Origin: Deltaproteobacteria bacterium
GTDB lineage: Bacteria > Myxococcota > Kuafuiibacteriia > Kuafuiibacteriales > Kuafuiibacteriaceae
DNA length: 64,000 nt
Assembly (NCBI GenBank): GCA_040218735.1
Contig: JAVJQW010000023.1
Coordinates: 1 to 64,000, forward strand
Direction of reading: 5' to 3'
Numbering within the stretch: position 1 is the first letter of the stretch; the number at the start of each line of letters is the position of its first letter. This document shows positions 1,485 to 42,360 of the stretch, in pieces. Position numbers and translations under genes: made by a program. The notes beneath the pieces were generated by a model. It searched no databases and was not told the origin of the DNA. It worked only from the letters and a program-made list of their open reading frames with translations.

Positions 1485-4400
1485 CTACTTCTTCTTGGTC
1501 AGCGGGATGTCGAGCGACTCCGGGATGGCCATGGCGTCCGGGAACTCGACCTCGTAGGGCTCGTGCCCCGGCGCCACGACGCGCACCGTCACCGGACCCG
1601 ACTCCGGCAGCGCATCCAGCTCGATCTCGGTGCCCGACCCCGACTCACGCCCGTTCACGTAGACCGTCGCGTCGACCGGCACGATGAGCTTGGGGTGCAC
1701 GCGCTGGAGGTCCACCCGGAGCGTGTACGTCCGGCCGCGCGCGATGACCTCCGTGATCTCGTGCTCCAGGTTCCGGTACCCCGCCTTCGAGAACCGAATC
1801 GGGTGCCGCTCACCCGGCGACAGCTTCACCTCGATCGGCGTCACCCCGCGCTCCACCTCGTCCACCATCACCCGCGCGCCGGTCGGCGACGAGTCCAGCT
1901 TGAGCTTGGGCCAGAACATGTCCGTGAGCGCCCACGCGTAACCCAACCCGCCCAACAACAGCACCGCGACCGCGACCAACCCGACCGTTAGTCCGTTGCG
2001 CGCCAAGAACCCCGCCTGAGGTTGCGGCGCCGGCATGCCGTACGGACTGCTCGGGCGCGCGTGCGCGGGCGTCCCCGGCGGAAACGACGCGGACGCAGAA
2101 GGCGGATAGGACGAAGGCGGCGCCGCGTTGGGGTTCGATGCGTAACCCGGGTGACTCGGCGTCGCGGGCGTTCCGCGCGGCGGCGAGTGCTGCCCCGCGT
2201 TGCGGGTCGCGACCGCGCGCCGCGCCGCTGCGTCGTCGTCCCACTCGAGCGCGTTGGCGTCGAGCTCCCCCGCCATCCAGCGACCCGTGGCCGCACCGAC
2301 GTCGTTGTTGACCGGACCGGACTGCGAAGCCGCCGGGGGCTGCGGCGACGCCGGCGGGCGCGGCCCGCTCGGCATCACCGTCGGGAGCTCGCCGCTGCTG
2401 CTGTCGACCAGCGCCGCGTTCTTCGCGAGCGCCTCCGCCGCGTTCTTCGCCTCGGCGAGCGCGGGCTGATCGTCGGTCACGGGGATGCGGATCGGTCCGT
2501 CGAAGAGCGCCGGCCCCGGCGCCTTCACGGCCGTCGGCTCGTAGGACTCCTCGTCGTCGGCCACCGCGTGCATCGCGATCGTCGAATCGATGACCGGATC
2601 ATCGACGTTCGACTCGTCGCGGATGATCGTCGCCCCTCCGCCCTGCTGCTGCGCGCGCAAGGCAGCTTGCACGTCCTCCGCCTGGACGCCGTCCAGCAAC
2701 GTGGCGTCCTGCAGGTCCGTGCTGTCGCCGCCCGCGCCCCACTCACTCGCGAGGAGCGCGGCGATCTCGTCGTTGGGCGCCTGCCCGTCCATCGGGATGA
2801 TCGTCGCGGCGTTTTCGTCGTCGTCGTCGCTGACCGTCGCGTCGAACGCGGACGGCGCACCGGCTGTCGGCGCCGCGGGGTCCCAGTCCGGCACCGCCAT
2901 CCCGGCGACGGTGCGCCCGTCGTCGATGCGATCGTCGTGCACCGGCGGCATCGCCATGGTGGGATCCGCGAAGTCGTCGTCGTCCGGCTCGATCTCGTCG
3001 AGCGACACCCCGACGACGGTCGCGCCGTCGGCGTCGCTGTCCGCGGGGCTCCCCTCGGAGGTCGCGGGCAACGACGGCTCCGCCATCATGTGGTCTCGGA
3101 CGCGGTTGCGGTCGGTGCTCGACTCCGGGAACGCGACGTCCACGGCTTGCTCGAGCGAGTCCGCACGGGACACCGCCTCGTAGCTCATCGTCGGCGAGTT
3201 CGCGACGATCAGATCCCCCGTCGAAAGCGCCTCCGGCGCATCCGTGTCGGCGCGCGACAACGCGCTCTGCACCCGCGCGAGCGACAGCTCTTCGTCCGTC
3301 TCGACGTCGCGGTCCGCCGGCGTCGGTCCCCACTCCTGGGAGTCGTCGATCTTCGGGAGCGCCTCGTGCGTCGGGAGGTCGACGAGGTTCGGCGACGCCC
3401 CCGAGCCGACGTGCACCGGCTGAAGCTGATCCGCCGTGTCCGCGAGCGAAGCATTCGGCGCGACGTCCGCGATGTTGTCCCGCGCCGTCACCGGCCCCGA
3501 GCTGCGGGACACGCCGTTCGCCGGATCCGAAGTCGCCGTCGAGTCGTCGCTCGCGACCCGCGGGTGCGGCGTGAAGCTCGCCGCGCCACGCTGCGCTTCG
3601 AGGAGCCGCTGCAGCTCGTCACGCGGGACCGGCTCGCGGAATGCGTCGGGCGTCACCTTCTGCATCAGCTGGGCGATGAGCTGCGCGCCCTTCTTGGTGT
3701 CGGTGCGCCACGCGGGCGTAGAGAGGACGGCGTCCTGCAGCGCGTCGCCGAGCGCCGCCGCCGACGACCACCGCAGGTCCGGCTTCGGCTCCAACGAGCG
3801 CATCACGATGGTGTCGAGCGCCGGCGTCACCTCGCGGTTGAAGTGCGACGGCGGCGGGACCTGTTTGTCCTCGAACCTCTGGATCGCCTCCATCACCGCC
3901 GCCCCGTGGACGGGGTGCTGACCGGCGAGCATCAGGTAGACGACGACCCCGGCGCAGAACAGATCGGCGCGCGCGTCGATCCGCTCGTAGCGGACCATCT
4001 CCGGCGCCATGTAACCGAACTTGCCCTTGAGGACGCCGGCCTGCGTCTGGTGCACACGACCGCGCGCACGCGCGATGCCGAAGTCCGTCAGCTTCACCTC
4101 CCCCTGCGTGGACAGGAGGATGTTTGCGGGCGTGACGTCGCGGTGGACGATGTTGAGCGGCTCCCCGGCGTGGTTGACGCGGGTGTGGGCATACTTGAGC
4201 GCGCGACAGAGCTCGGTCGCGATGTAGAGCGCCGCGGGGATCGGGACCTTGCCGCCGTCGCTCGCGATCGTCTCGACGAGGCGCTCGACCGTGATCCCCT
4301 GAACGTACTCCATCGCGATGTAGTAGCGACCGTCGTCCTCCGAGAGGTCGAGGACGCTCACGACGTTCTGGTGGTTGAGGAACATCGAGATGTTCGCTTC

Positions 4401-4583
4401 GTCGACGAGCATCTCGACGAACTGGCGGTCCACGGCGAGCTCTTCGCGCAGGACCTTCAGGGCGACGTACGGTCCGAACCCGACCGGGCCGGCCTTGGCC
4501 GCGACGTACACCTCACCCATGCCACCAGACGCGAGTCGTGACAGGAGGGTGTAGCGCCCCAGGTTGTCCCCCACTTCGGGCAC
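1485..4583 (-). CDS. Membrane Ser/Thr protein kinase with a long acidic linker, TM helix and C-terminal PEGA domain
   Basis: GGMGEVY, VALK, HRDVTPAN, DFGIA, GKFGYMAPE; TM segment LTVGLVAVAVLLLGGLGYAW; PEGA-like LDSSPTGARVMVD..GVTP. Confidence 0.93.
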   Translation of the reverse strand: MPEVGDNLGRYTLLSRLASGGMGEVYVAAKAGPVGFGPYVALKVLREELAVDRQFVEMLVDEANISMFLNHQNVVSVLDLSEDDGRYYIAMEYVQGITVERLVETIASDGGKVPIPAALYIATELCRALKYAHTRVNHAGEPLNIVHRDVTPANILLSTQGEVKLTDFGIARARGRVHQTQAGVLKGKFGYMAPEMVRYERIDARADLFCAGVVVYLMLAGQHPVHGAAVMEAIQRFEDKQVPPPSHFNREVTPALDTIVMRSLEPKPDLRWSSAAALGDALQDAVLSTPAWRTDTKKGAQLIAQLMQKVTPDAFREPVPRDELQRLLEAQRGAASFTPHPRVASDDSTATSDPANGVSRSSGPVTARDNIADVAPNASLADTADQLQPVHVGSGASPNLVDLPTHEALPKIDDSQEWGPTPADRDVETDEELSLARVQSALSRADTDAPEALSTGDLIVANSPTMSYEAVSRADSLEQAVDVAFPESSTDRNRVRDHMMAEPSLPATSEGSPADSDADGATVVGVSLDEIEPDDDDFADPTMAMPPVHDDRIDDGRTVAGMAVPDWDPAAPTAGAPSAFDATVSDDDDENAATIIPMDGQAPNDEIAALLASEWGAGGDSTDLQDATLLDGVQAEDVQAALRAQQQGGGATIIRDESNVDDPVIDSTIAMHAVADDEESYEPTAVKAPGPALFDGPIRIPVTDDQPALAEAKNAAEALAKNAALVDSSSGELPTVMPSGPRPPASPQPPAASQSGPVNNDVGAATGRWMAGELDANALEWDDDAAARRAVATRNAGQHSPPRGTPATPSHPGYASNPNAAPPSSYPPSASASFPPGTPAHARPSSPYGMPAPQPQAGFLARNGLTVGLVAVAVLLLGGLGYAWALTDMFWPKLKLDSSPTGARVMVDEVERGVTPIEVKLSPGERHPIRFSKAGYRNLEHEITEVIARGRTYTLRVDLQRVHPKLIVPVDATVYVNGRESGSGTEIELDALPESGPVTVRVVAPGHEPYEVEFPDAMAIPESLDIPLTKKK

Positions 4584-18234: not shown

Positions 18235-19647
18235 TCAATCCACCTCGAAGTCCACGAAGCCCGCGGGCGCGTTCTCGTCGTCCTCCGACGTCTTCTTCTC
18301 CCCGCCACCGCTCGTCGACTTCGTCTTTCGGCGGCGCTTCTTCCGCTTCTTCTTCACCGTAGGCTCGGGCTTCGGGGCCTCCGCCTTCACGGCGTCCGGC
18401 TCCGGTGCGTCCGCGTCTGCGTCCCCGTCCGCGTCGAGCGAGGGGGCCGCCAGGGGTATCGGGGGCGGGTCCTCGATGATCGCCTCGACCGTGGTGTCGT
18501 CGTCCGGCTCCTGCGAGAAGAAGGCGCCCGCGGCGATCGCGACGGCGAGGGACAAGAGCAGCACGCCGAGGAAGCGCACCGTCGTCGAGGACTTGAAGGC
18601 GCCCGTGTTCGTGGACGGGGCGAACGCGATGACCGGCTCCGATATCTCGGAGGTCGGCGGGCCGACCGCCGGGACCTGACTCGGCGTGAGCGGACGCAGG
18701 CGCGTCGGGTTCGGCGTGAAGTTGAGGAGCTGGTCGATTCGCATCCGGACTTCGATCGCGCTCGTCGGGCGCTGATCCGGATCCTTCGCGATCAGGCTCA
18801 TCAAGAACGCCTCGATCGCCGGCGGCACCGTGTTCGGCGGGCACGCGCGCGACAGCGGCGCGGGCGGCTCGTTTACGTGCATCAACAACAACGCGAGCGG
18901 CTCGTCGGAGACGAACGGCGTGCGCCCCGCGATGCACTTGTAGGCGATCGTCCCGAGGCTGTAGAGGTCGCTGCGCGCGTCGGCGCCACGACCCTGCGCC
19001 TGCTCGGGGGACATGTACGCGGGCGTCCCGAACACCGTGCCGGTCGCGGTCTGCGAGCCCTTGCCGAGCTTCGCGATACCGAAGTCGAGGACACGCACGA
19101 TGGCGTCACCGCCGACCTCCTCGATGAAGATGTTCTCGGGCTTCAGGTCGCGGTGGATGATGCCCTTCTCGTGCGCCTCCGCGAGCGAGTCGCAGACCTG
19201 CCGCATCACGCCGAGCGTCCACTGCGGGGACTTGCGCTCCCGCATGAGGACCGTCTCGAGCGACACGCCGGTCAGGAACTCCGTGACGAGGTACGGGCGG
19301 CCGTCGCCGAGCTTGCCGAAGTCGATGAGCTTCAGCGTGTTCGGGTGACGCAGCTGCGAGATGATGTGCGCCTCGTTCTCGAAACGGCGAACCATCTCCG
19401 GGTTCTGAAGCGCCATCGCGTTGACGATCTTCACCGCGACGTCGCGGCCGATGTTCGTCTGGACCGCGCGGTAGACCGTGCCCATCCCGCCGGCCCCGAC
19501 GCGCTCCTCGATGCGGTAGCGGCCGTCGATGACGGTGCCCAGCATCGGGTCCACCCCCTCGCCGCTCAGCTCCAACGTGCTCCCGTCGTGCGGGCATCGC
19601 CGGACCCCCGCCGCGAAGGCACGTGAACATTTGGGACAGACGAGCAT
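18235..19647 (-). CDS. Ser/Thr protein kinase with N-terminal Zn-ribbon and TM helix
   Basis: CPKC..CPHD; GAGGMGTVY, VAVK, HRDLKPEN, DFGIAK, GTPAYMSPE; start could be TTG 19722. Confidence 0.92.
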   Translation of the reverse strand: MLVCPKCSRAFAAGVRRCPHDGSTLELSGEGVDPMLGTVIDGRYRIEERVGAGGMGTVYRAVQTNIGRDVAVKIVNAMALQNPEMVRRFENEAHIISQLRHPNTLKLIDFGKLGDGRPYLVTEFLTGVSLETVLMRERKSPQWTLGVMRQVCDSLAEAHEKGIIHRDLKPENIFIEEVGGDAIVRVLDFGIAKLGKGSQTATGTVFGTPAYMSPEQAQGRGADARSDLYSLGTIAYKCIAGRTPFVSDEPLALLLMHVNEPPAPLSRACPPNTVPPAIEAFLMSLIAKDPDQRPTSAIEVRMRIDQLLNFTPNPTRLRPLTPSQVPAVGPPTSEISEPVIAFAPSTNTGAFKSSTTVRFLGVLLLSLAVAIAAGAFFSQEPDDDTTVEAIIEDPPPIPLAAPSLDADGDADADAPEPDAVKAEAPKPEPTVKKKRKKRRRKTKSTSGGGEKKTSEDDENAPAGFVDFEVD

Positions 19648-19790
19648 GCCAGGCGGACGACGGACCTCGAGGTCCGTCGGGTGTTCCGCGCGATCCTCAC
19701 TGATGGCTCCCCCGTAGGACAAGACTGCACCTGGTTCCTACGCGCGAATGACCACGATCTTCCTCACGCTCCGCCGTTCGTCGGAGCTGA

Positions 19791-20822
19791 ATGAAGTTCG
19801 AAACCAATCGGATGCAGAACAGCTCGGTCGCGCGTATAAACGCCCCAGTGGGACGCTTGGGGCGCGGATTGGGCTTAGCCGTGATCGCGATCATGATCGC
19901 CGCGGCACCGGTCCACGCGAAGAAGCGCCGGAGGCTGTCGCCTCAGAAGAAGGCACAGAAGGAGAAGCGCCGGGCCTTCAAGCTGTTCAAGAAGGGGGAA
20001 TACGAAGCGGGTATCGAGGCCATGGAGAGCGCCTACCGCCTGGTCCCCCACCCCGGATTCCTCCTGAACATCGCCGTGGCGTACGATCAGTGGGGGGACC
20101 ACTGCAAAGACAGCCTCGTCGCCTTCGACCGCTTCTTCGAGGTGTGCGGCGACGACTGCAAGATGCTCCAGGCCGCGAAGAAGCGCCACGGGCAGGTCGA
20201 GGCCGCATGTCGCGGCGAGCTCGCGGTGTTCACGGAGCCCGCGGGCGCCGCCGTCAGTATCGACGGCGACCCCGTCGGGAAGTCTCCGCTCACCGCGTCG
20301 CTCGCGCCCGGACGCCACGTGATCACCGCTCGGATGCAGGGGCACGCGCCGGACCAGAACACCATTGAAATTCGTCCGGGTGAAACGACGCGCGTGAGTC
20401 TGTCCCTCGTCGCTGATGCACCCCCTCCGCCGCCGCCACCGCCCCCTCCGCCGCCGCCGAACCTCGTCGTCACCACGCCGCAGCCGGACGACGAACCGCT
20501 CTATCCGTGGCCTTGGATTTCATTCGGCGTGGGCGCCGCCGGCCTCGGAGTCGGCATCATCTACACGTTCGCGACGTTCGCCGCGCTCGACGCCGAGGAG
20601 GCCGCGCGCGTCGAACGGAACACCAAGGCCGAGGTGGATCGCCTCCAGCGCGACGCCACGAGCAAGGCCGTCCTCGCCAACGTAGGCTACGGAATCGCCG
20701 CCGTCGGGCTCACCGCCGGCGTGCTGTTCCTGGTGCTCGAAGGCGACGACGAAGATCCGGAGTCACCGGTCGTGCGGTGGGGCGTCGGGCCCAACGGCGT
20801 CGGGATCGCGGGGACCTTCTAA
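19791..20822 (+). CDS. TPR plus PEGA domain membrane protein
   Basis: Signal peptide; AYRLVPHPGFLLNIA TPR; TEPAGAAVSIDG..GKSP PEGA; poly-Pro linker; two C-terminal hydrophobic helices; start uncertain. Confidence 0.8.
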   Translation: MKFETNRMQNSSVARINAPVGRLGRGLGLAVIAIMIAAAPVHAKKRRRLSPQKKAQKEKRRAFKLFKKGEYEAGIEAMESAYRLVPHPGFLLNIAVAYDQWGDHCKDSLVAFDRFFEVCGDDCKMLQAAKKRHGQVEAACRGELAVFTEPAGAAVSIDGDPVGKSPLTASLAPGRHVITARMQGHAPDQNTIEIRPGETTRVSLSLVADAPPPPPPPPPPPPPNLVVTTPQPDDEPLYPWPWISFGVGAAGLGVGIIYTFATFAALDAEEAARVERNTKAEVDRLQRDATSKAVLANVGYGIAAVGLTAGVLFLVLEGDDEDPESPVVRWGVGPNGVGIAGTF

Positions 20823-24801: not shown

Positions 24802-25278
24802 TCAGTCGTCGCGCCGATAGTCGCCCCGCTGGCCCCCGGACTTCTCGAGGAGCCGAACGCGCTCGATCGTCGCGCCGCGTTCGTAGCGTTTGATCATGTC
24901 GTAGAGCGACAGCGCCGCAACCGATGCCGACGTCAGCGCTTCCATCTCGACGCCGGTCCGTCCGCGGGTCTCGACGCGCGCGACGATATGGACGCCTTCG
25001 TCCTCCACCTCGACGTCGACCGCGACGCGCGTGATCGACAACGGGTGCGCCAGCGGGATGAGGTCGGAGGTCTTCTTGCTCGCGGCGATGCCGGCGATGC
25101 GCGCGACGGCGAGCGCGTCGCCTTTCTTCACGCGGCCCTCGCGCAGCAGCGCGACCGTCTCGGGAGCGAGGCGCACGAACGACTCCGCGACGGCGACGCG
25201 GTGGGTCTCGTCCTTCGCGCCCACGTCGACCATGTGGGCAGCGCCCTTTTCGTCCAGGTGCGGTAGCTCGTCGCTCAT
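24802..25278 (-). CDS. moaC: Cyclic pyranopterin monophosphate synthase
   Basis: AHMVDVG, KKGD..ARIAGI, LIPLAHP, TGVEMEALT, LYDMIK, LLEKSGG. Confidence 0.95.
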   Translation of the reverse strand: MSDELPHLDEKGAAHMVDVGAKDETHRVAVAESFVRLAPETVALLREGRVKKGDALAVARIAGIAASKKTSDLIPLAHPLSITRVAVDVEVEDEGVHIVARVETRGRTGVEMEALTSASVAALSLYDMIKRYERGATIERVRLLEKSGGQRGDYRRDD

Positions 25279-26675
25279 GGTGTGTAGGGCTCGAAGCGCG
25301 CCTTGGAGGCGCGGCGTTCGTTCAACGCGACGAGCTCGTCTCGCGTGTACGCAAACGGGCTCCCGGCCGGAAGGGCTTTCTTCACGAACTCGATGATGGT
25401 GATGCGCGCCATCTTGCCGTGGTCGACGATGGACGGGTCACCGTCTTCCGCGCAGTCGTCCCAGAGCTGAAAGATCATGCGGCGCTTCGCTTCGGTGGTG
25501 AGCTTGGGGTCGATCCAGATCCCTTCGAGGTCCGACTTCAGCGCGTAGAGGGTCTCGTCGAGGCGCTGCTCGCACGCTTCGGCCGCCATCGCGACGCGGA
25601 GGTCGCGGGTGTCCTCGAGGACGCGACGCTTCGCCGCCGCGTAGGCGTCGTCGCCGCCGATCGCCATGACGGTGTCGGTGACGTCGAACCAGAACCCGAG
25701 CCCCGTGTAGCCTGCGATGTGGTCTTCGAACTCGATCGTCCCGTCGTGCTCGATGCGCGCGGTGAACGAACGGTGCTTCGACACGTACCCGCCCCCCGCC
25801 TGCGGACGCAGCTCCGTGTACGGCGCAGCCGGCGGCGGCGCCGGCGGGAGGATCGGCGCGTCCTCCACGCGCGGCGGCGCGAGGCCCGGCGCGAGCTCCG
25901 CGACCGAACCGGGCGCCGCCGGCCCGACGGCCCCCCCGGGCTCACCGTAGCCGGGCGCGACCGTGACGGCGCCGTCCGGGGTCGTGGGGATCGCGGGGCC
26001 GCGTCCGTCGGGGGTGGCGTTGGCGCGGGCGCGATCGTCGGCCGGCGATCGATCGGCGCGGGTGCGATCGTCGGCCCGCGATCGGCCGGAGCGAGCGCGT
26101 TCGTCGGCGCGTTCCTGATCGGCGCGCGCTCGATCGACGCGGGACGCATCGGCGCGGGCGTCCTCCTCGGCGCGGGACGCATCGCCGCGGGCCTCCTCCT
26201 CAGCGCGCTCCGGATCGGCGCGGGCCTCCTCCTCGGCGCGGGCCTCCTCCTCGGCGCGCGCGCGCTCGGCGCGGGCCGCATCGGCGCGGGCCGCATCGGC
26301 GCGGGCCTCCTCCTCGGCGCGGGCCTCCTCCTCGGCGCGCGCGCGCTCGGCGCGGGCCGCATCGGCGCGGGCCGCATCGGCGCGGGCCTCCTCCTCGGCG
26401 CGGACCTCCTCCTCCGCGCGCTCTCGCTCGGCGGCGCGCGCTTGGTCGGCGCGGCGCTCCCGATCTGCGCGCGCGTTGTCCGCGCGCTCCCGATCCGCGC
26501 GGGCTCGCGCTTCGGCCCGGCGCTCACGCTCCGCACGCGGCGGGACGTCCTGCACCGTGAACCGAATCAGCTCTCGCTCGACGGGGGGCGCGGGCGGGTC
26601 GGACGTCACCGCGAGCGCGAACAGCGCCAGGTGCGCGGCGACCGAGACGGCCGCACCGGTCCACCAGCCCTTCAT
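25275..26675 (-). CDS. Membrane-anchored protein with a TolA-like charged repeat helix and conserved-looking C-terminal domain
   Basis: N-terminal anchor SVAAHLALF (TonB/TolA-like S..H); long A/R/E/D repeats; C-terminal IFQLWDDCAE. Confidence 0.7.
   Translation of the reverse strand: MKGWWTGAAVSVAAHLALFALAVTSDPPAPPVERELIRFTVQDVPPRAERERRAEARARADRERADNARADRERRADQARAAERERAEEEVRAEEEARADAARADAARAERARAEEEARAEEEARADAARADAARAERARAEEEARAEEEARADPERAEEEARGDASRAEEDARADASRVDRARADQERADERARSGRSRADDRTRADRSPADDRARANATPDGRGPAIPTTPDGAVTVAPGYGEPGGAVGPAAPGSVAELAPGLAPPRVEDAPILPPAPPPAAPYTELRPQAGGGYVSKHRSFTARIEHDGTIEFEDHIAGYTGLGFWFDVTDTVMAIGGDDAYAAAKRRVLEDTRDLRVAMAAEACEQRLDETLYALKSDLEGIWIDPKLTTEAKRRMIFQLWDDCAEDGDPSIVDHGKMARITIIEFVKKALPAGSPFAYTRDELVALNERRASKARFEPYTP
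26215..26415 (-). repeat. Coding tandem repeat, 81-bp unit built from 15- and 18-bp subunits
   Basis: ARAEEE-ARAEEE-ARADA-ARADA-ARAER repeated about twice with identical DNA. Confidence 0.85.
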
Positions 26676-26701: not shown

Positions 26702-27106
26702 CTAAGACGCTTCCGGAACGTGGCTCGGGCAGCGGAGGATGAACCACGCGCCCCACAGGATGACCGCGGCCACACCGGCGAGGAGCAGCGGGTGCCGGTC
26801 CCCGGTCGCGCCGAGGAACACGAAGCTCGCGGACATGCAGCTGATCGCGATGACCTTCACGTACGGCGGGATCACGCGGTGCTCGCGCCAGCGCTGCAGC
26901 GTCGGGCCGAAGCGCGGGTGGTAGTAGAGCCAGTCGTGAAGGCGCGGCGAGCTGCGGGCGAAGGCCCACGTGGCGAGGATCAGGAAGACCGTCGTCGGCA
27001 TCCCCGGCACGACCGCGCCGACCGCCCCGAGGCCCACGAAACCGAGCCCGAGCACCAGGTAGGCCCACCGGACGACGCCGGTGGCGGGCTGGACCTCTCC
27101 ACTCAC
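26702..27106 (-). CDS. YbaN/DUF454 inner membrane protein
   Basis: GAVVPGMPTTVFLILATWAFARSSPRLHDWL..HPRFGP. Confidence 0.9.
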   Translation of the reverse strand: MSGEVQPATGVVRWAYLVLGLGFVGLGAVGAVVPGMPTTVFLILATWAFARSSPRLHDWLYYHPRFGPTLQRWREHRVIPPYVKVIAISCMSASFVFLGATGDRHPLLLAGVAAVILWGAWFILRCPSHVPEAS

Positions 27107-27231
27107 GCAATCCCTCTTCGTCCAAGGTAGCGGAGGGATCAAGCGATTGCGTCGTTTTCAGACACGTTTTTGGTAGCCAAGAATTGGGTATCCCGCGAGG
27201 GCGGAGGTGGGTCTTGGGGGTGAGGGATACG

Positions 27232-28920
27232 ATGAGTGACGTTCAAGCCGCCCAAAACGGTGACTCCGCCGCCTTCCGGCGCCTCGTGGATCGCTACCAG
27301 AACATGGTGCGCGCCTACGCGGCCGGCTGGGTCGGGGACGCCGCGGACGACGTCGCGCAGGAGGTGTTCGTCAACGCCTTCCTGAAGCTGGGCCAGCTCG
27401 ACGACCCCGCGAAGTTCGGGGGGTGGCTGCGACGGATCGCGCACAAACACTGCGACCGCCGCACCCGCCGCCCGCGACGCGAGGCGCTCGTCGAGGTCGA
27501 GGAGATCGCGCCACCGGTCGAGCCGGCCGACGGCGCCTGGCTCCTCGACGCGATCGAGCGATTGCCGGCGCACGAACGCATCGTCGTCGCCCTCCACTAC
27601 CTCGGCGACGAACCGCAGAAGGACGTCGCCGACTTTTTGGGGCTGCCGCTCACCACCGTGAAGAAACGCCTTCACACGGCGCGCGGTCGCCTCGCGAAAC
27701 GGAGGACCCCCATGCAAGTCACCACCACCACCCAACTCGAAGATCGTGTCGCGCTGTTCGTCGCGTTGCGGCAGAGCGACCGCGACGCCGTGCGCGCGAT
27801 CCTCACGCAGCACCCCGCGCTCGTCGAAGCCGCGGAGCACTACTCCGACGAGGAGGCCTTCGCCGCCGGTCTCCCGCTCGCGCACCGTCTCACGCCGTTG
27901 ATCCTCGCCGCCGGCCGCGGCGACGACGCGATGGTGCGCCTGCTCCTCGAGCTCGGCGCCGACCCCGACACCACCTGCGGCTGCGACGCCGAGGAGACCG
28001 CGCTGTTCGCCGCGGCGCTCCGCGGACGCGCGACGGTCGTCGAGCGACTCCTCGCCGCTGGCGCGGATCCGAAGCGGACGAACCACGTCGGCTTCACGCC
28101 CGTCGACGTCGCACGGATGCGGCGACACCACGACGTCCTCTTGTGCTTCGGCGCCACGCCCGACGACGCCGAGCCCGACGCCGCCGCCACCCCCGAACAG
28201 CGCATCGTCACCGGCATCCGAGCGCTCGATCTGCTCGCGCCGCTGGAGCGCGGGACGATCGTACGCGTGCACGGCGCCGCCGAGACGGGCTTGACCGTGT
28301 TGCTCGCCGAGCTCGCCGCGCGCTTCGCGGCGATGGGCGGACACAGCGTGTGGACGTCGGGCGGCGCGGGGACGTGGCAAGGGCCGTCACTCGCGGACGT
28401 CGTCGTGGACCTCGGCATCGAGCGACACACGACCGCCGTCGCGACCGGCGCGCTCGAGGTCGTCCAGTCGATGCAGGACGCGCGCGATCCGGTCGCGCTG
28501 TTCGTCTTCCTCGGCGACGCGCCGGAGGCGGAGGTCGAAGCGGCGCTCGCCGCGTTCCGACGCACAGCGACGATCACCTTCGTGATCGATCCGTGGGTCG
28601 CGGTGACGAAGGGCGCCCAGGACGCCCCCGCCCTCGCCGCGCCATACGACGCGGTGATCCACACGTCGCGCGCGCTCGCCGAAGCGGGGGTGTACCCGGC
28701 GCTCGACGCCGTCGGCACCGACAGCACCGCGCAGGTGACGCCGCGCCACGCCCAGATCCGCGAGGCGGTGCGTGCACGTCGGGACGATCCGAGTGTCGCG
28801 CGTCACTTCGCGCAGTGGTTCTCCGTGGCCGAGACCGACACCGGCCACCCCGGAGAAGTGTTCGGGCTCGATGAGACGCTCGACGGGTTCGCGGGCGTCG
28901 TCGCGCGCGAATTGGGTTAA
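27232..28920 (+). CDS. ECF sigma-70 factor fused to ankyrin repeats and a degenerate F1-ATPase beta-like domain
   Basis: Region 2 ADDVAQEVF..FGGWLRRIA; region 4 IERLP..TVKKRLHTAR; ankyrins LTPLILAA, ETALFAAA, GFTPVDVA; beta-like TGIRALDLLAP, GVYPALD, QWFSVAE..TG.PG. Confidence 0.85.
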   Translation: MSDVQAAQNGDSAAFRRLVDRYQNMVRAYAAGWVGDAADDVAQEVFVNAFLKLGQLDDPAKFGGWLRRIAHKHCDRRTRRPRREALVEVEEIAPPVEPADGAWLLDAIERLPAHERIVVALHYLGDEPQKDVADFLGLPLTTVKKRLHTARGRLAKRRTPMQVTTTTQLEDRVALFVALRQSDRDAVRAILTQHPALVEAAEHYSDEEAFAAGLPLAHRLTPLILAAGRGDDAMVRLLLELGADPDTTCGCDAEETALFAAALRGRATVVERLLAAGADPKRTNHVGFTPVDVARMRRHHDVLLCFGATPDDAEPDAAATPEQRIVTGIRALDLLAPLERGTIVRVHGAAETGLTVLLAELAARFAAMGGHSVWTSGGAGTWQGPSLADVVVDLGIERHTTAVATGALEVVQSMQDARDPVALFVFLGDAPEAEVEAALAAFRRTATITFVIDPWVAVTKGAQDAPALAAPYDAVIHTSRALAEAGVYPALDAVGTDSTAQVTPRHAQIREAVRARRDDPSVARHFAQWFSVAETDTGHPGEVFGLDETLDGFAGVVARELG

Positions 28921-28929
28921 CCTTTCGAG

Positions 28930-29799
28930 GTGAACCTTCGCGTCCTCGGCGTCGCCGTCGCCTTCGCCCTCTTCCCCGCTCGCGCGATGGCTTACACGTG
29001 CACGCCGGTGCCGAACTCGAGCCCGGCCCTGTCGCAGGTCTGGCAGCAGCGCTGCATCCCGTACTGGCTCAACCCGAACAGCGCGATGATGCAGCGCTCG
29101 GACATCCAACAGATCGTGTCGCAGAGCTTCGCGGTGTGGTCGTCGAACGAGTGCACGGACCTGGAGTTCATGGACGCCGGGGAGACGGATCAGCTCGCGG
29201 GGTTCGATCCGGATCGCTGCGACAACAAAAACGTCATCGGCGCGGTCGAAAACGACGACGACCTCGCGGACTTCTTCGACTCACCGGACCTGCTGGCGGT
29301 GACGCTCACTTCGTTCTCGCGCGCGACGGGCGAGATCTTCGACGCGGACATCCTGTTCAACACCGTGAACTTCCCGTTCGACGACGTGACCGCCGCGGGC
29401 CTCTGCCAAGCGCGCAACCCGAGGCCCTACGACATCCGCAACACCCTCGTGCACGAGATCGGGCACTTCATCGGCTTCGACCACGTGAACGTCGAGGGCG
29501 CGACGATGTTCCCGTCCGCCGTGAACTGCGAGACCGAAAAACGCACGCTGGAGCCGGACGACCTCGACGCCGTCTGCACCACGTACCCGAAAGACGCGCC
29601 CGCCAACACGTGCGCGCCGCCCGCGGACTACGAGGCGGGCGGGGATCCTTCGATCTTCAGGGACCAGTGCATCAACAGCGACGTGGAGCTGTGTGAGGAC
29701 CGCGCGGGGAACACGTGCTCGTGTGGAACGACCGGGGGTCGCGGCGGGTTGTGGGGGTTGTTGATCTTGGCGCCGGTCCTGTTGCGGCGGCGTCGATGA
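28930..29799 (+). CDS. Matrixin-like zinc metalloprotease with a MYXO-CTERM-like tail
   Basis: HEIGHFIGFDH, Met-turn ATMF, C-terminal CSC..LWGLLILAPVLLRRRR. Confidence 0.88.
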   Translation: MNLRVLGVAVAFALFPARAMAYTCTPVPNSSPALSQVWQQRCIPYWLNPNSAMMQRSDIQQIVSQSFAVWSSNECTDLEFMDAGETDQLAGFDPDRCDNKNVIGAVENDDDLADFFDSPDLLAVTLTSFSRATGEIFDADILFNTVNFPFDDVTAAGLCQARNPRPYDIRNTLVHEIGHFIGFDHVNVEGATMFPSAVNCETEKRTLEPDDLDAVCTTYPKDAPANTCAPPADYEAGGDPSIFRDQCINSDVELCEDRAGNTCSCGTTGGRGGLWGLLILAPVLLRRRR

Positions 29800-29854
29800 G
29801 TTGCGCTCCCGGGACCCGGACCGGTACCGGGGCCGGGGAGCTTGCTCCGCTCGC

Positions 29855-30415
29855 TCAGCGGTAGATGAACTTGAGCACTTCCTCGGAGATCATGAACTCG
29901 TCGCCGTCCTTGATCTTCTCTTTTTGGATCTTCACGCCGTCCTTCCAGACGCCGTTCGCCGAGCCCAGATCTTCGATGTAGTGCTCGCCGTTTTCGCGGC
30001 AGATGCCGGAGTGCTGGCGGGACACCTTCGAAGACGGGATGACCAGGTCGCAGGTGCGCGAGCGGCCGATGATGAAGGTGTCCTTGTCGATCTTGTGCAT
30101 GTCGCCCGCGCTGTTGACCACGTACAGCGCCTTGCGCGGTTTCTCCGCGGGCTTCGGCGGCTTCGGCCGCGTGCGCGGCGGTTCCGGAGCAGCCTGCGGG
30201 GACGGGGCCGGTGCGCCACGCCCCGGGCCGACCTGCGGCTCCATGGCGGGCACCTCCTTGGCCATCGGCGTCAGGAAGTTGAAGCGACGCGCGAACTCAT
30301 AGATCGCCTGGTTGACGACCGCGTGTCGGTCCGTGCCACAGTCTTCGGCGATCCGCGTCAAGCAGTCCCAGAGGTGGTCGGCAATATCGAGCTCCCGGCG
30401 CGTACGTCTTGCCAT
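29855..30415 (-). CDS. FHA domain protein with an N-terminal ribbon-helix-helix-like segment
   Basis: IIGRS, KVSRQHS, EDLGSANG FHA motifs; N-terminal RELDIADHLW..VVNQAIYEFAR. Confidence 0.85.
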   Translation of the reverse strand: MARRTRRELDIADHLWDCLTRIAEDCGTDRHAVVNQAIYEFARRFNFLTPMAKEVPAMEPQVGPGRGAPAPSPQAAPEPPRTRPKPPKPAEKPRKALYVVNSAGDMHKIDKDTFIIGRSRTCDLVIPSSKVSRQHSGICRENGEHYIEDLGSANGVWKDGVKIQKEKIKDGDEFMISEEVLKFIYR

Positions 30416-40731: not shown

Positions 40732-42360
40732 TCAGGCGCGCATCGCCGACACCCGCCCGTTGGCGTTGTGGAGCCGACCGCGGTGTGGCGCAGTGACCAC
40801 CCACTCGTACCAGGCGCGCCGGGTGCGGGAGCGCCGGAAGAGCTCGACGCGGAGCGTAGACGCCTCGCGAATCCCGAAGGGTTGCGCAAACGGCAGGTAC
40901 ATCGGACTCCAGCTGCGCATCCCGGGCGTCGCGTCTTGGGGGACGATCGACAACCGAACGCCGTCGGCGAGCTCCATATCGAAGAACGCGCCGAGACCGT
41001 GGGCGACGCCGTCTGCCTCGATTTGAAACGCTACGGCCGCGTGCTGATCGAGCGGCTCCTCGCCGGGGTGTGTGAAATGAAAGACCGGCTGCGGCGGAGC
41101 GAGGAGACACGCGCGGTCCAGGGTGATCGTGTAGAGCTTTTCGGGCTCCGCCACCGCCATCGCGAGGGACTCGGCGTGCAGCGGAGCGACGTAGCTCGTG
41201 TATGCGCGCGGGATCGAAACGCCGTCCCCCGCGAGGTGTCGTTCGATCGGTCGCAGGCACTCCGGCGACAGCTCGTTGTCACCAAAGCCACCGAGGAGCT
41301 CGCTGACGAGGACGTCGATCGGAGCGTCGGGTACCCAGCTCCGCATGTCCGCGTCGACGACCTTCGCTGCGTTTCTCCACTCGCGTTCGTTGCGCGCGTG
41401 GAGCGTCGCGCGCGCACCGGGGTTCTTCTCGAGCAGGACGAGTCGAATCCTTCGGTTCAGGAACTGCGCGGCGCGAAGGACCTGGTCCACCAACCCACCG
41501 CGCCCCGCCCCCGCGACGACGACGTGTGTGTCGTCCGGGCGATCACGAAGCACGGCGAGGGCGGCCTCGTGGTACGCGCGGTACTTCACCGGGTCACTCT
41601 CGATCACCTCGTACGTCGCGCTCGGGATGTCGTCGCCGAGGGGCTCGACCGGGATGATCGGGGCGTTGGCAAATGCCGCCGCGTGGTGGTGCTGCGCAGA
41701 CACCCCCGCCCACGCCGCGCGATAGGCTTCGTCGAGGTCGTTGCGCTGCTCGGGGTCCGTGAGCAGCACACGTTCGCCGAAGCTCCGGAACAACCGCTCG
41801 AACGCCGGCCACGCCTTCGACGCGACCACGAGCTCCACCGGCTCGGCGCACCATCGTTCGACGACGCCCTTGGACGGAGGGCGCTTCGTCGCGTCGAGCG
41901 CCACGTGTACGCGCGAGTGATGTGCAAAGAACCACCGCGCGTCGTCGTAGAGCGACCAGCCGGCCTCCGACCACGGGACGAGCAACCAGGCGTGCGCCGG
42001 TCCGCGCTCGATCAGCGACGCGATCGCCGCGAGCTGCGCGGTGGTCGTCTTCTTCGACAGCGGTAGCATCACCGCGGGGAGGCCGAGGTACACCGCGCGC
42101 TCCACCTGCGCTTCGATCGACTGCCCGGGCGCGATCGCACCGACGATGCGCCGACGCCAGGTCGCCGCGTCGAGCTCTCGGTCGTGATAGGCGGTCGAGG
42201 CGAGGTCGATGAGCGCGAGCTCCCCCCCGAGGCGCGCGACCTGGTTCAGCCCTACCTGCAGGCCGTGGTCGAGGCCGACCTGGACGACGTAGGTGAGGCG
42301 ACGGAGATCGGGCTGGGTGAGGCGCGCGTAGAGACGCGCCATGTCCTCGGAGCTGGTCAT
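40732..42360 (-). CDS. PRMT5/Skb1/Hsl7-like protein arginine N-methyltransferase
   Basis: AVYLGLPAVMLPL, ERWCAEP, TYEVIESDPVKY, VAGAGRGGLV, LEKNP, ADMRSW, VSELLGGFGDNELSPECL, GVSIPRAYTSY, PGMRSWSP, WYEW, HNANGR, collinear with eukaryotic PRMT5. Confidence 0.9.
   Translation of the reverse strand: MTSSEDMARLYARLTQPDLRRLTYVVQVGLDHGLQVGLNQVARLGGELALIDLASTAYHDRELDAATWRRRIVGAIAPGQSIEAQVERAVYLGLPAVMLPLSKKTTTAQLAAIASLIERGPAHAWLLVPWSEAGWSLYDDARWFFAHHSRVHVALDATKRPPSKGVVERWCAEPVELVVASKAWPAFERLFRSFGERVLLTDPEQRNDLDEAYRAAWAGVSAQHHHAAAFANAPIIPVEPLGDDIPSATYEVIESDPVKYRAYHEAALAVLRDRPDDTHVVVAGAGRGGLVDQVLRAAQFLNRRIRLVLLEKNPGARATLHARNEREWRNAAKVVDADMRSWVPDAPIDVLVSELLGGFGDNELSPECLRPIERHLAGDGVSIPRAYTSYVAPLHAESLAMAVAEPEKLYTITLDRACLLAPPQPVFHFTHPGEEPLDQHAAVAFQIEADGVAHGLGAFFDMELADGVRLSIVPQDATPGMRSWSPMYLPFAQPFGIREASTLRVELFRRSRTRRAWYEWVVTAPHRGRLHNANGRVSAMRA

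Follow-up and report, generated by a model that had tools for sequence, protein, structure and literature searches.

What is a piece of a rotary motor doing at the end of a transcription factor? The question is raised by a gene on contig JAVJQW010000023.1 of a Deltaproteobacteria bacterium (assembly GCA_040218735.1; Myxococcota, family Kuafuiibacteriaceae), of which we analysed one stretch of 64,000 nucleotides (positions 1 to 64,000), hereafter the window. The protein (P0001) starts as an extracytoplasmic function (ECF) sigma factor and continues into ankyrin repeats and a domain resembling the beta subunit of F1-ATPase. An earlier note on this DNA had proposed a one-component sigma factor whose C-terminal domain may bind adenine nucleotide, or a partner ATPase, without hydrolysis, and so couple transcription to energy state. 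We find that the fusion is real and conserved, and that its type of extension is not named for any ECF group in the main texts of the two papers with which we compared it (PMC7826278, PMC8999054). The reading we favour, with a probability of roughly 60%, is that of a functional ECF sigma factor whose ankyrin and dead F1-beta extension replaces an anti-sigma factor and gates the sigma core in cis, with its own promoter being activated.

Domain architecture and origin of the C-terminal domain

The frame is open from 27184 to 28920 on the forward strand, and the ATG at 27232 agrees with the N-termini of homologues in the alignment and has a purine-rich stretch directly 5' of it (coordinates of all features are given in Table 1). 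As the earlier note had stated, sigma regions 2 and 4 lie in this one open reading frame (ORF). Both score above their Pfam cut-offs, they are the only sigma regions, and the core ends near residue 156; the NCBIfam model TIGR02937 (sigma70-ECF) gives 65.9 bits against a cut-off of 42.9. Region 2 ends in a clade signature, KHCDRRTRR, which includes Cys74 (nt 27451-27453). Everything after sigma4 (residues ~160-562) forms an extension of ~400 aa, which exceeds the >50-aa threshold for such extensions and is conserved across the family. Judged by its sequence, the protein belongs to the ECF (group 4) sigma family, in the class of ECF factors with C-terminal extensions.

The first part of this extension is an ankyrin-repeat domain. 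Ank_2 matches in three stretches with 79.1 bits (cut-off 27.3; E 3.8e-22), Ank, Ank_3, Ank_4 and Ank_5 also exceed their cut-offs, and the Pfam models span residues ~212-303. The presence of ankyrin repeats had been recognised before, but their number is about four rather than about three, spread over residues 168-305, with helix pairs visible in the AlphaFold2 (AF2) model. Repeats 2 and 3 have a conserved CGC between their helices (residues 249-251, nt 27976-27984), which, going by the secondary structure, would sit at the tip of a loop. The full-length AF2 model has a predicted TM-score (pTM) of 0.72, with low-confidence linkers at residues 80-101, 158-166 and ~311-320; this hints at a defined, compact arrangement and is to be taken as suggestive only.

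The remainder of the extension is, from its sequence and predicted structure, a shortened descendant of F1 beta, and specifically of beta rather than of alpha, V-type or type III secretion system (T3SS) ATPases. The last 251 aa matched 59 PDB sequences at E<=0.01 (best E 1.6e-17), which are by title 57 F-type beta subunits, one G1-ATPase beta and one T3SS ATPase. The collinearity with ATP synthase beta claimed earlier takes the form of three ordered blocks (residues 10-98, 136-191 and 210-249 of the 251-aa query, aligned to beta residues 132-221, 306-360 and 412-451), and the three peptide strings quoted in its favour, TGIRALDLLAP among them, are all present in the protein. A profile of 16 family members (A2) reached 4e-29 against beta and only 5e-7 against T3SS ATPases, and a profile-profile alignment with 16 true AtpD sequences (A3) in hhalign gave a probability of 99.5% over 247 columns. 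The curated models score far lower: Pfam ATP-synt_ab covers only residues 328-366, below threshold (22.1 bits, cut-off 29.5), and the atpD model TIGR01039 matches in three stretches (E 1.4e-14) with 53.8 bits, far under its cut-off of 462.85. The AF2 model of the domain alone has a mean pLDDT (per-residue confidence) of 90.9 and a pTM of 0.90. In Foldseek, a check that had been suggested for this domain, the model was recognised as an F1 beta fold (best E 8.4e-15, probability 1.00, TMq 0.63-0.73 to F1 chains), and among the matches listed 37/37 were F1, ATP-synthase or G1-ATPase entries. The best chain in several bovine entries was chain E, which we presume to be the empty beta subunit; we treat this as a lead only.

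What the domain keeps is the nucleotide-binding core and the C-terminal helices. The N-terminal beta-barrel is missing, with homology starting from beta residue ~132. Translation and alignment both confirm the degenerate Walker A motif that had been read from the sequence, in which Lys has become Leu; one Gly has also become Glu, and AETGL is invariant in 16/16 aligned relatives. GERTRE and DELSEED are indeed absent: the PDB alignment reads GAGTWQ at the former, and the DELSEED hairpin, together with ~23 aa after Walker B, falls in gaps of the AtpD profile alignment. The Walker B Asp is lost as well (LLFID aligned to ALFV- in hhalign). As for the adenine pocket, with residues named as in the bovine enzyme, its Tyr (YPALD) and one Phe, the first (QWF), are kept as the earlier note had it, whereas the second Phe is Asp (VAETDTG vs VAEVFTG). 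Three invariant tryptophans (W374, W382 and W455) replace catalytic-cleft residues in the family alignment. With all catalytic motifs lost, the domain is predicted to be catalytically dead. We do not consider the protein an AtpD, because five defining AtpD features were tested and none was found. Its nucleotide-binding core and C-terminal helical domain are collinear with those of AtpD and the predicted fold is alike, but it has no barrel, Walker A Lys, catalytic Glu/Arg, Walker B Asp or DELSEED and lies outside any atp operon.

Relatives, distribution and reality of the fusion

The fusion is not confined to the window. Sixteen clusters, with identities as low as 36%, came out of a word-indexed search, and 15 of them carry sigma and ankyrin Pfam domains, and phmmer against 1.84 billion representatives gave 269 matches at E<=1e-3 (45 at <=1e-10 and 14 at <=1e-30). 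We sorted the family with local hidden Markov models (HMMs) built from A1, leaving 149 rows with >=190 aa of the domain once seven near-identical or very short rows had been removed. A search by domain architecture, as the earlier note had recommended, returned 65 proteins with sigma, ankyrin and beta-like parts; the other rows comprise 11 with sigma and beta-like parts but no ankyrin repeats, 27 true AtpD, 14 with ankyrin and beta-like parts (probably fragments) and 32 that are beta-like alone or fragments. Among 64 full-length proteins, the P-loop Lys position is occupied by L (39), M (10), R (7), K (4), Q (2), V (1) or another residue (1). The position of the stacking Tyr holds Y, F or W in 62/64 and the first pocket Phe is present in 92%, while the linker between the ankyrin and beta-like domains varies in length (alignment columns ~336-395).

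In a FastTree phylogeny (SH-like supports; midpoint root for drawing only), the 27 AtpD rows group together (98) and the sigma fusions without ankyrin repeats, which we call barrel-type, adjoin them (96). Further outward come short stand-alone forms, then ankyrin fusions that keep the P-loop Lys, and furthest out the main ankyrin clade (77 rows), within which the window protein belongs to an AETGL clade (46 rows, support 99). This graded series, which begins with true AtpD and passes through the barrel-type and the Lys-keeping ankyrin fusions before it reaches the AETGL clade, supplies natural intermediates with which to ask at what point nucleotide binding disappeared.

The barrel-type fusions (P0102, P0146, P0151, L035-L041 and L044) join an ECF sigma factor directly to a near-complete beta-like protein. 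They share with the window's clade a related sigma core (144-155 bits to the window family's sigma HMM), the same Cys at the end of sigma2 (11/11), a beta-like domain without GERTRE and a conserved upstream motif, which in their case is their own (roughly (A/T)ACAGC ... GGCAC). Unlike the window's clade, which is the most diverged, they keep the beta-barrel and mostly a G.GK P-loop (several G.GK[MLV]), have no ankyrin repeats and branch beside AtpD. Their hosts are metagenome-assembled genomes (MAGs) of Chloroflexota (Chloroflexia, Thermomicrobiales, Chloroflexales) and Armatimonadota (Chthonomonadaceae), with one in a 'Deltaproteobacteria' (Myxococcota) MAG.

Some relatives depart from both plans. 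The short stand-alone proteins (P0081, P0111, P0113, P0125, P0131, P0141 and P0165; 317-372 aa) have the barrel end, a GxxGxGK[LMT] P-loop and the usual beta C-terminus, lack GERTRE and branch between AtpD and the sigma fusions. At L043 (Ktedonosporobacter) the sigma and beta-like parts are in separate ORFs behind an upstream motif GGTAACC ... GGGAC. In a Caldilineaceae MAG (L172), an ORF from 2438 encodes 484 aa with a sigma core (155 bits to the window family's sigma HMM) followed by ankyrin repeats only, the beta-like domain being absent. Scanning genome contigs with the short form P0125 gave AtpD-level matches only, and with the Lys-keeping P0140 sigma-level matches only, plus one sigma and ankyrin protein without a beta domain. 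A search for shorter family proteins returned mostly generic ankyrin proteins, PADLOC matched the protein to ankyrin-type models only, and neither the window protein nor a homologue was found in the Protein Atlas.

Within the phylum the family is patchily distributed. Using the single protein at E<=1e-12 on a sample of 401 genomes of the window's phylum, we found the domain in 8, every one of them from the same family as the window; this amounts to 8/20 genomes and 5/12 genera of the class sample, and to 0/381 of the other phylum genomes. The phylum tallies include one genome flagged as unpublished (G195), with an AtpD-level match only, and nothing else reported here depends on it. A profile scan separates the two levels, with family members at E<=1.8e-57 and the next matches, AtpD, at ~2e-16. 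Across species-representative genomes, the AETGL pattern marked 13 family loci, mostly in MAGs titled Myxococcota, Polyangia, Sandaracinaceae or Polyangiaceae. The window's own genome has one copy of the fusion, a true atpD on a different contig (C70) and 34 ECF-like sigma matches, of which the nearest shows 38% identity.

The fusion is covered without gaps by two metagenome contigs that are independent and stem from different studies: one of 8,021 nt (run X2) covers 26900-29900 with 34 differences, and one of 8,282 nt (run X6) covers 26900-29793 with 74. Among the differences listed there are no indels, and 20 of the 21 inside the ORF fall at third codon positions; there are 91 further contig differences beyond those listed. 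Against the same-genus homologue (L001), the ratio of non-synonymous to synonymous change (dN/dS) is 0.23 for the sigma part, 0.37 for the ankyrin part, 0.28 for the beta-like part and 0.30 for the whole gene, and purifying selection acts on all three parts. That the ORF is instead a chimeric assembly, which the earlier note had listed as a refuting outcome, or a functionless, decaying pseudogene fusion is scarcely credible. Such a view could point to the frameshift, split and internal stop in three of the eight related genomic copies (see below), but it has to contend with the two gapless contigs, with the same architecture in 65 representative proteins, and with the pattern of selection and of third-position differences. 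An RNA run (X21) contained short contigs 90-95% alike, one of them across the junction of the sigma gene and the protease gene that follows it; these belong to a relative in a metatranscriptome and therefore do not demonstrate transcription here.

Promoter, regulation and rival explanations

In 14 of 15 homologous loci (L001-L012, L020 and L021, but not L024) the sigma gene is directly preceded by the sequence GGTAACC-N16-GGTC, which ends 8-20 nt before the ATG and reads GGGTC in 13 of them. Since the proteins at these loci are only 39-77% identical to the window protein, the retained motif is a strong phylogenetic footprint. Positive autoregulation is common among ECF sigma factors, and a conserved promoter of ECF type suggests autoregulation and fits its positive form. 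The exact form of the motif (GGTAACC-N15-17-GGGTC) has no site in the window's own genome and six in five related genomes, of which three are the sigma genes' own promoters (in 3/5 genomes) and the other three do not precede an ORF. The top match in the own genome to a position weight matrix (PWM; built from 11 sites that score 24-30) is at C42:122086 (+) and, with 24.5, scores as high as true sites; no ORF start lies downstream of it, and it is probably a chance intragenic match. With no other targets to be found in this way, the adjacent M10 metalloprotease gene is left as the one plausible member of the regulon.

According to the main texts of PMC7826278 and PMC8999054, C-terminal extensions serve as regulators in ECF groups without anti-sigma factors, a logic described for ECF41, ECF42 and ECF238. 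In the window protein, the ~400-aa extension, made of ankyrin repeats and an exapted, shortened and dead F1 beta, would likewise take the place of a separate anti-sigma factor and gate the sigma2/sigma4 core in cis. Both the control that the extension exerts on sigma activity and the direction of its effect are things we infer. Once released or activated by the extension, the core would have its own gene transcribed from the GGTAACC-N16-GGTC promoter just upstream, and in the window's genus the transcript would probably extend into the M10 metalloprotease gene. No anti-sigma Pfam family was found among the window neighbours or among 21 neighbour proteins of 9 homologous loci. The one-component reading fits because no anti-sigma family is encoded nearby, all parts of the protein are under purifying selection and the putative autoregulatory promoter is conserved. 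This half of the earlier note's inference is supported, while its other half, nucleotide or energy sensing, finds no support in this clade, as discussed below.

Among the main routes by which bacteria transduce signals are ECF sigma factors, and those fused to extensions are self-contained switches that are attractive for synthetic circuits. If the beta-like domain does gate the sigma core, it would show a rotary-motor subunit stripped of catalysis and reused as a regulator, for which the conserved promoter is a ready-made reporter.

Like other ECF factors with C-terminal extensions, the window protein has a minimal core of sigma2 and sigma4 to which a long extension is fused, its gene follows a promoter of ECF type, and no gene beside it is recognised by Pfam as an anti-sigma factor. 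It differs in that its extension is much longer and in that ankyrin repeats with a dead F1 beta are not among the types named in the main texts of PMC7826278 and PMC8999054. ECF220, whose model protein comes from Sorangium cellulosum (PMC8999054, Table 2), also has a C-terminal extension, with transmembrane proteins encoded at +1 and -1 (PMC7826278, Table 2). The window gene resembles it by description only, with its extension, a DUF454 membrane protein at -1 and a secreted, anchored protease at +1; these neighbours, however, are conserved only within the genus. In the literature searched (full text), no paper described an ECF sigma factor fused to ankyrin repeats or to an ATP-synthase domain.

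Several observations weigh against gating in cis with autoregulation. That the extension touches sigma2/sigma4 at all is something we infer. The window's own promoter-like site is weak, with a PWM score of 16.7 compared with 24-30 for the homologues' sites, and the PWM scan of the own genome (28 matches scoring >=13) gave no convincing further targets. Pfam matches none of its families to several of the neighbouring ORFs, among which an anti-sigma factor may have escaped recognition. Finally, three of the eight copies in the class look disrupted: in G068 (C66; L021/L171) the sigma ORF runs for only 153 aa before a frame change, in G112 (C13; L006/L166) the gene is split into 399 + 255 aa in overlapping frames, and in G063 (C11; L005/L022) there is an internal TAG. 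The gene may therefore be dispensable, or these assemblies may be imperfect.

How the extension might act otherwise has more than one answer. The energy sensor of the earlier note, in which the beta-like domain binds ATP/ADP without hydrolysis or docks on an ATPase partner and so ties sigma activity to adenylate charge, looks improbable to us. It is true that the domain descends from a nucleotide-binding subunit, that the stacking Tyr and the first pocket Phe are conserved at the frequencies given above, and that more beta-like relatives keep GxxxxGK (4/64 sigma-ankyrin proteins, besides the several barrel-type fusions with G.GK[MLV]). In the window's clade, however, GAAETGLT puts an acidic residue in the anion hole and Leu in the place of Lys, in a motif without exception among the aligned relatives; the catalytic Glu/Arg, the Walker B Asp and the second pocket Phe are gone, and the three invariant tryptophans occupy catalytic-cleft positions. 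No atp genes lie nearby, and two parts by which beta is held in F1 and touches gamma, the crown beta-barrel and DELSEED, have been deleted. We see no support in this clade for the claim that the domain binds adenine nucleotide and reports energy state. Because the P-loop is acidic and has no Lys, nucleotide sensing is unlikely in the window's clade; in the Lys-keeping relatives it is possible. We are also doubtful, if slightly less so, that the ankyrin and beta-like domains form a docking platform for a partner in trans (an F1 alpha-like or envelope-signalling protein) that switches the sigma factor. Ankyrin repeats are protein-binding modules, and the variable linker between them and the beta-like domain would suit such a role. 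ECF42 is a precedent, with a TPR extension proposed in the main text of PMC8999054 to act through protein interaction. Yet no conserved neighbour gene could encode the partner, and parts of the surfaces that keep beta in place in the alpha3beta3 ring have been lost.

A thiol or metal switch deserves some consideration, although we think it unlikely. Here Cys74 (with His73) and the ankyrin CGC would form a Zn or redox site by which the ankyrin domain is clamped to sigma2 until oxidation, or a change of metal, frees the core. Cys74 is found in 50/64 relatives, Cys249 and Cys251 in 55/64 and all of them together in 49/64, the sigma2 Cys is also invariant in the barrel-type fusions, and the main text of PMC8999054 describes ECF groups that combine a linker Cys with Cys-rich extensions (CorE, ECF238) or that have Cys pairs (ECF57). 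The co-occurrence of Cys74 and CxC (2x2 table over the 64 relatives: 49 / 8 / 6 / 1) is nevertheless attributable to shared ancestry, as a tree-aware test gives no support for coupling: on the tree CxC changes once and Cys74 seven times, and in five independent pairs that differ in Cys74, CxC never differs. In addition, six proteins keep CxC without Cys74, and the barrel-type fusions carry the sigma2 Cys without any ankyrin CGC.

More speculatively, and with little weight placed on it, a dead F1 beta may have been recruited as the sensory or anti-sigma module of an ECF clade found in three or more phyla, with the barrel-type form in Chloroflexota and Armatimonadota and the ankyrin-type form in Myxococcota. 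Members that keep the Lys would bind adenine nucleotide and tie transcription to energy charge, while the window's clade would have swapped the ligand for built-in residues (the P-loop Glu and three Trp) and would answer another cue through its ankyrin repeats and Cys. If true, the family would represent a class of one-component sigma regulators that is new, and a rare case in which a subunit of a rotary ATPase has been exapted.

Neighbouring genes and other features of the window

Table 1. Features of the sigma gene and its flanks (window positions)
Feature	Position	Strand	Evidence
DUF454 membrane protein, divergent upstream	26702..27142	-	Pfam DUF454 E 2.2e-35
ECF-type promoter-like site GGTATCC-N15-GGGTC	27187..27213	+	ends 18 nt before ATG; 1 match vs 0.01 expected in 64 kb
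Whole gene: ECF sigma, ankyrin repeats, predicted F1-beta-like pseudo-ATPase	27232..28920	+	562 aa plus stop; Pfam, NCBIfam
Sigma region 2, residues 18-83	27283..27480	+	Pfam Sigma70_r2 E 2.3e-10
Sigma region 4, residues 103-154	27538..27693	+	Pfam Sigma70_r4_2 E 2.1e-12
Ankyrin-repeat domain, residues 168-305	27733..28146	+	Pfam Ank_2, local HMM
Shortened F1-ATPase-beta-like domain, residues 323-560	28198..28911	+	sequence, profile, AF2 model, Foldseek
Degenerate Walker A GAAETGLT (vs GGAGVGKT), residues 348-355	28273..28296	+	translation, PDB alignment
M10 (matrixin-like) metalloprotease, MYXO-CTERM-like tail	28930..29799	+	Pfam Peptidase_M10 E 1.9e-14

The M10 metalloprotease gene starts 10 nt after the sigma stop codon, which makes it a candidate for co-transcription. 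Its product also matches NF041905 (E 1.5e-42, below the cut-off) and MYXO-CTERM (E 0.0023). Both this gene and the DUF454 gene are kept as neighbours only in the same-genus locus. The statement that no atp genes are nearby is borne out, since among the 49 called genes of the window the only match to an ATP-synthase Pfam family is the sub-threshold ATP-synt_ab in the sigma ORF itself. Around nine distant homologues the neighbours are unrelated to one another and include neither a recognised anti-sigma factor nor an atp gene; found there are cobW, a hybrid kinase, cytochrome c, another ECF sigma factor, an ABC exporter, an SDR, an OEP, a NUDIX protein, an MCP, a MopE-like protein, a beta-lactamase and FtsX.

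Elsewhere in the window, an FHA-domain protein is encoded just downstream of the protease gene (29855-30415, -). The protein encoded at 25275-26675 (-), of 466 aa, matches neither Pfam nor NCBIfam; it starts with a hydrophobic helix and contains a long stretch of low complexity in which Arg, Ala, Asp and Glu abound (RADRERA-like repeats). Two Ser/Thr protein kinases, one with a PEGA domain, and a separate PEGA-domain protein are encoded at 1488-4583 (-), 18238-19722 (-) and 19791-20819 (+). The gene at 40735-42360 (-) encodes a bacterial PRMT5-like arginine methyltransferase (PRMT5 E 1.4e-47, PRMT5_C 3.3e-37, PRMT5_TIM 5.6e-10).

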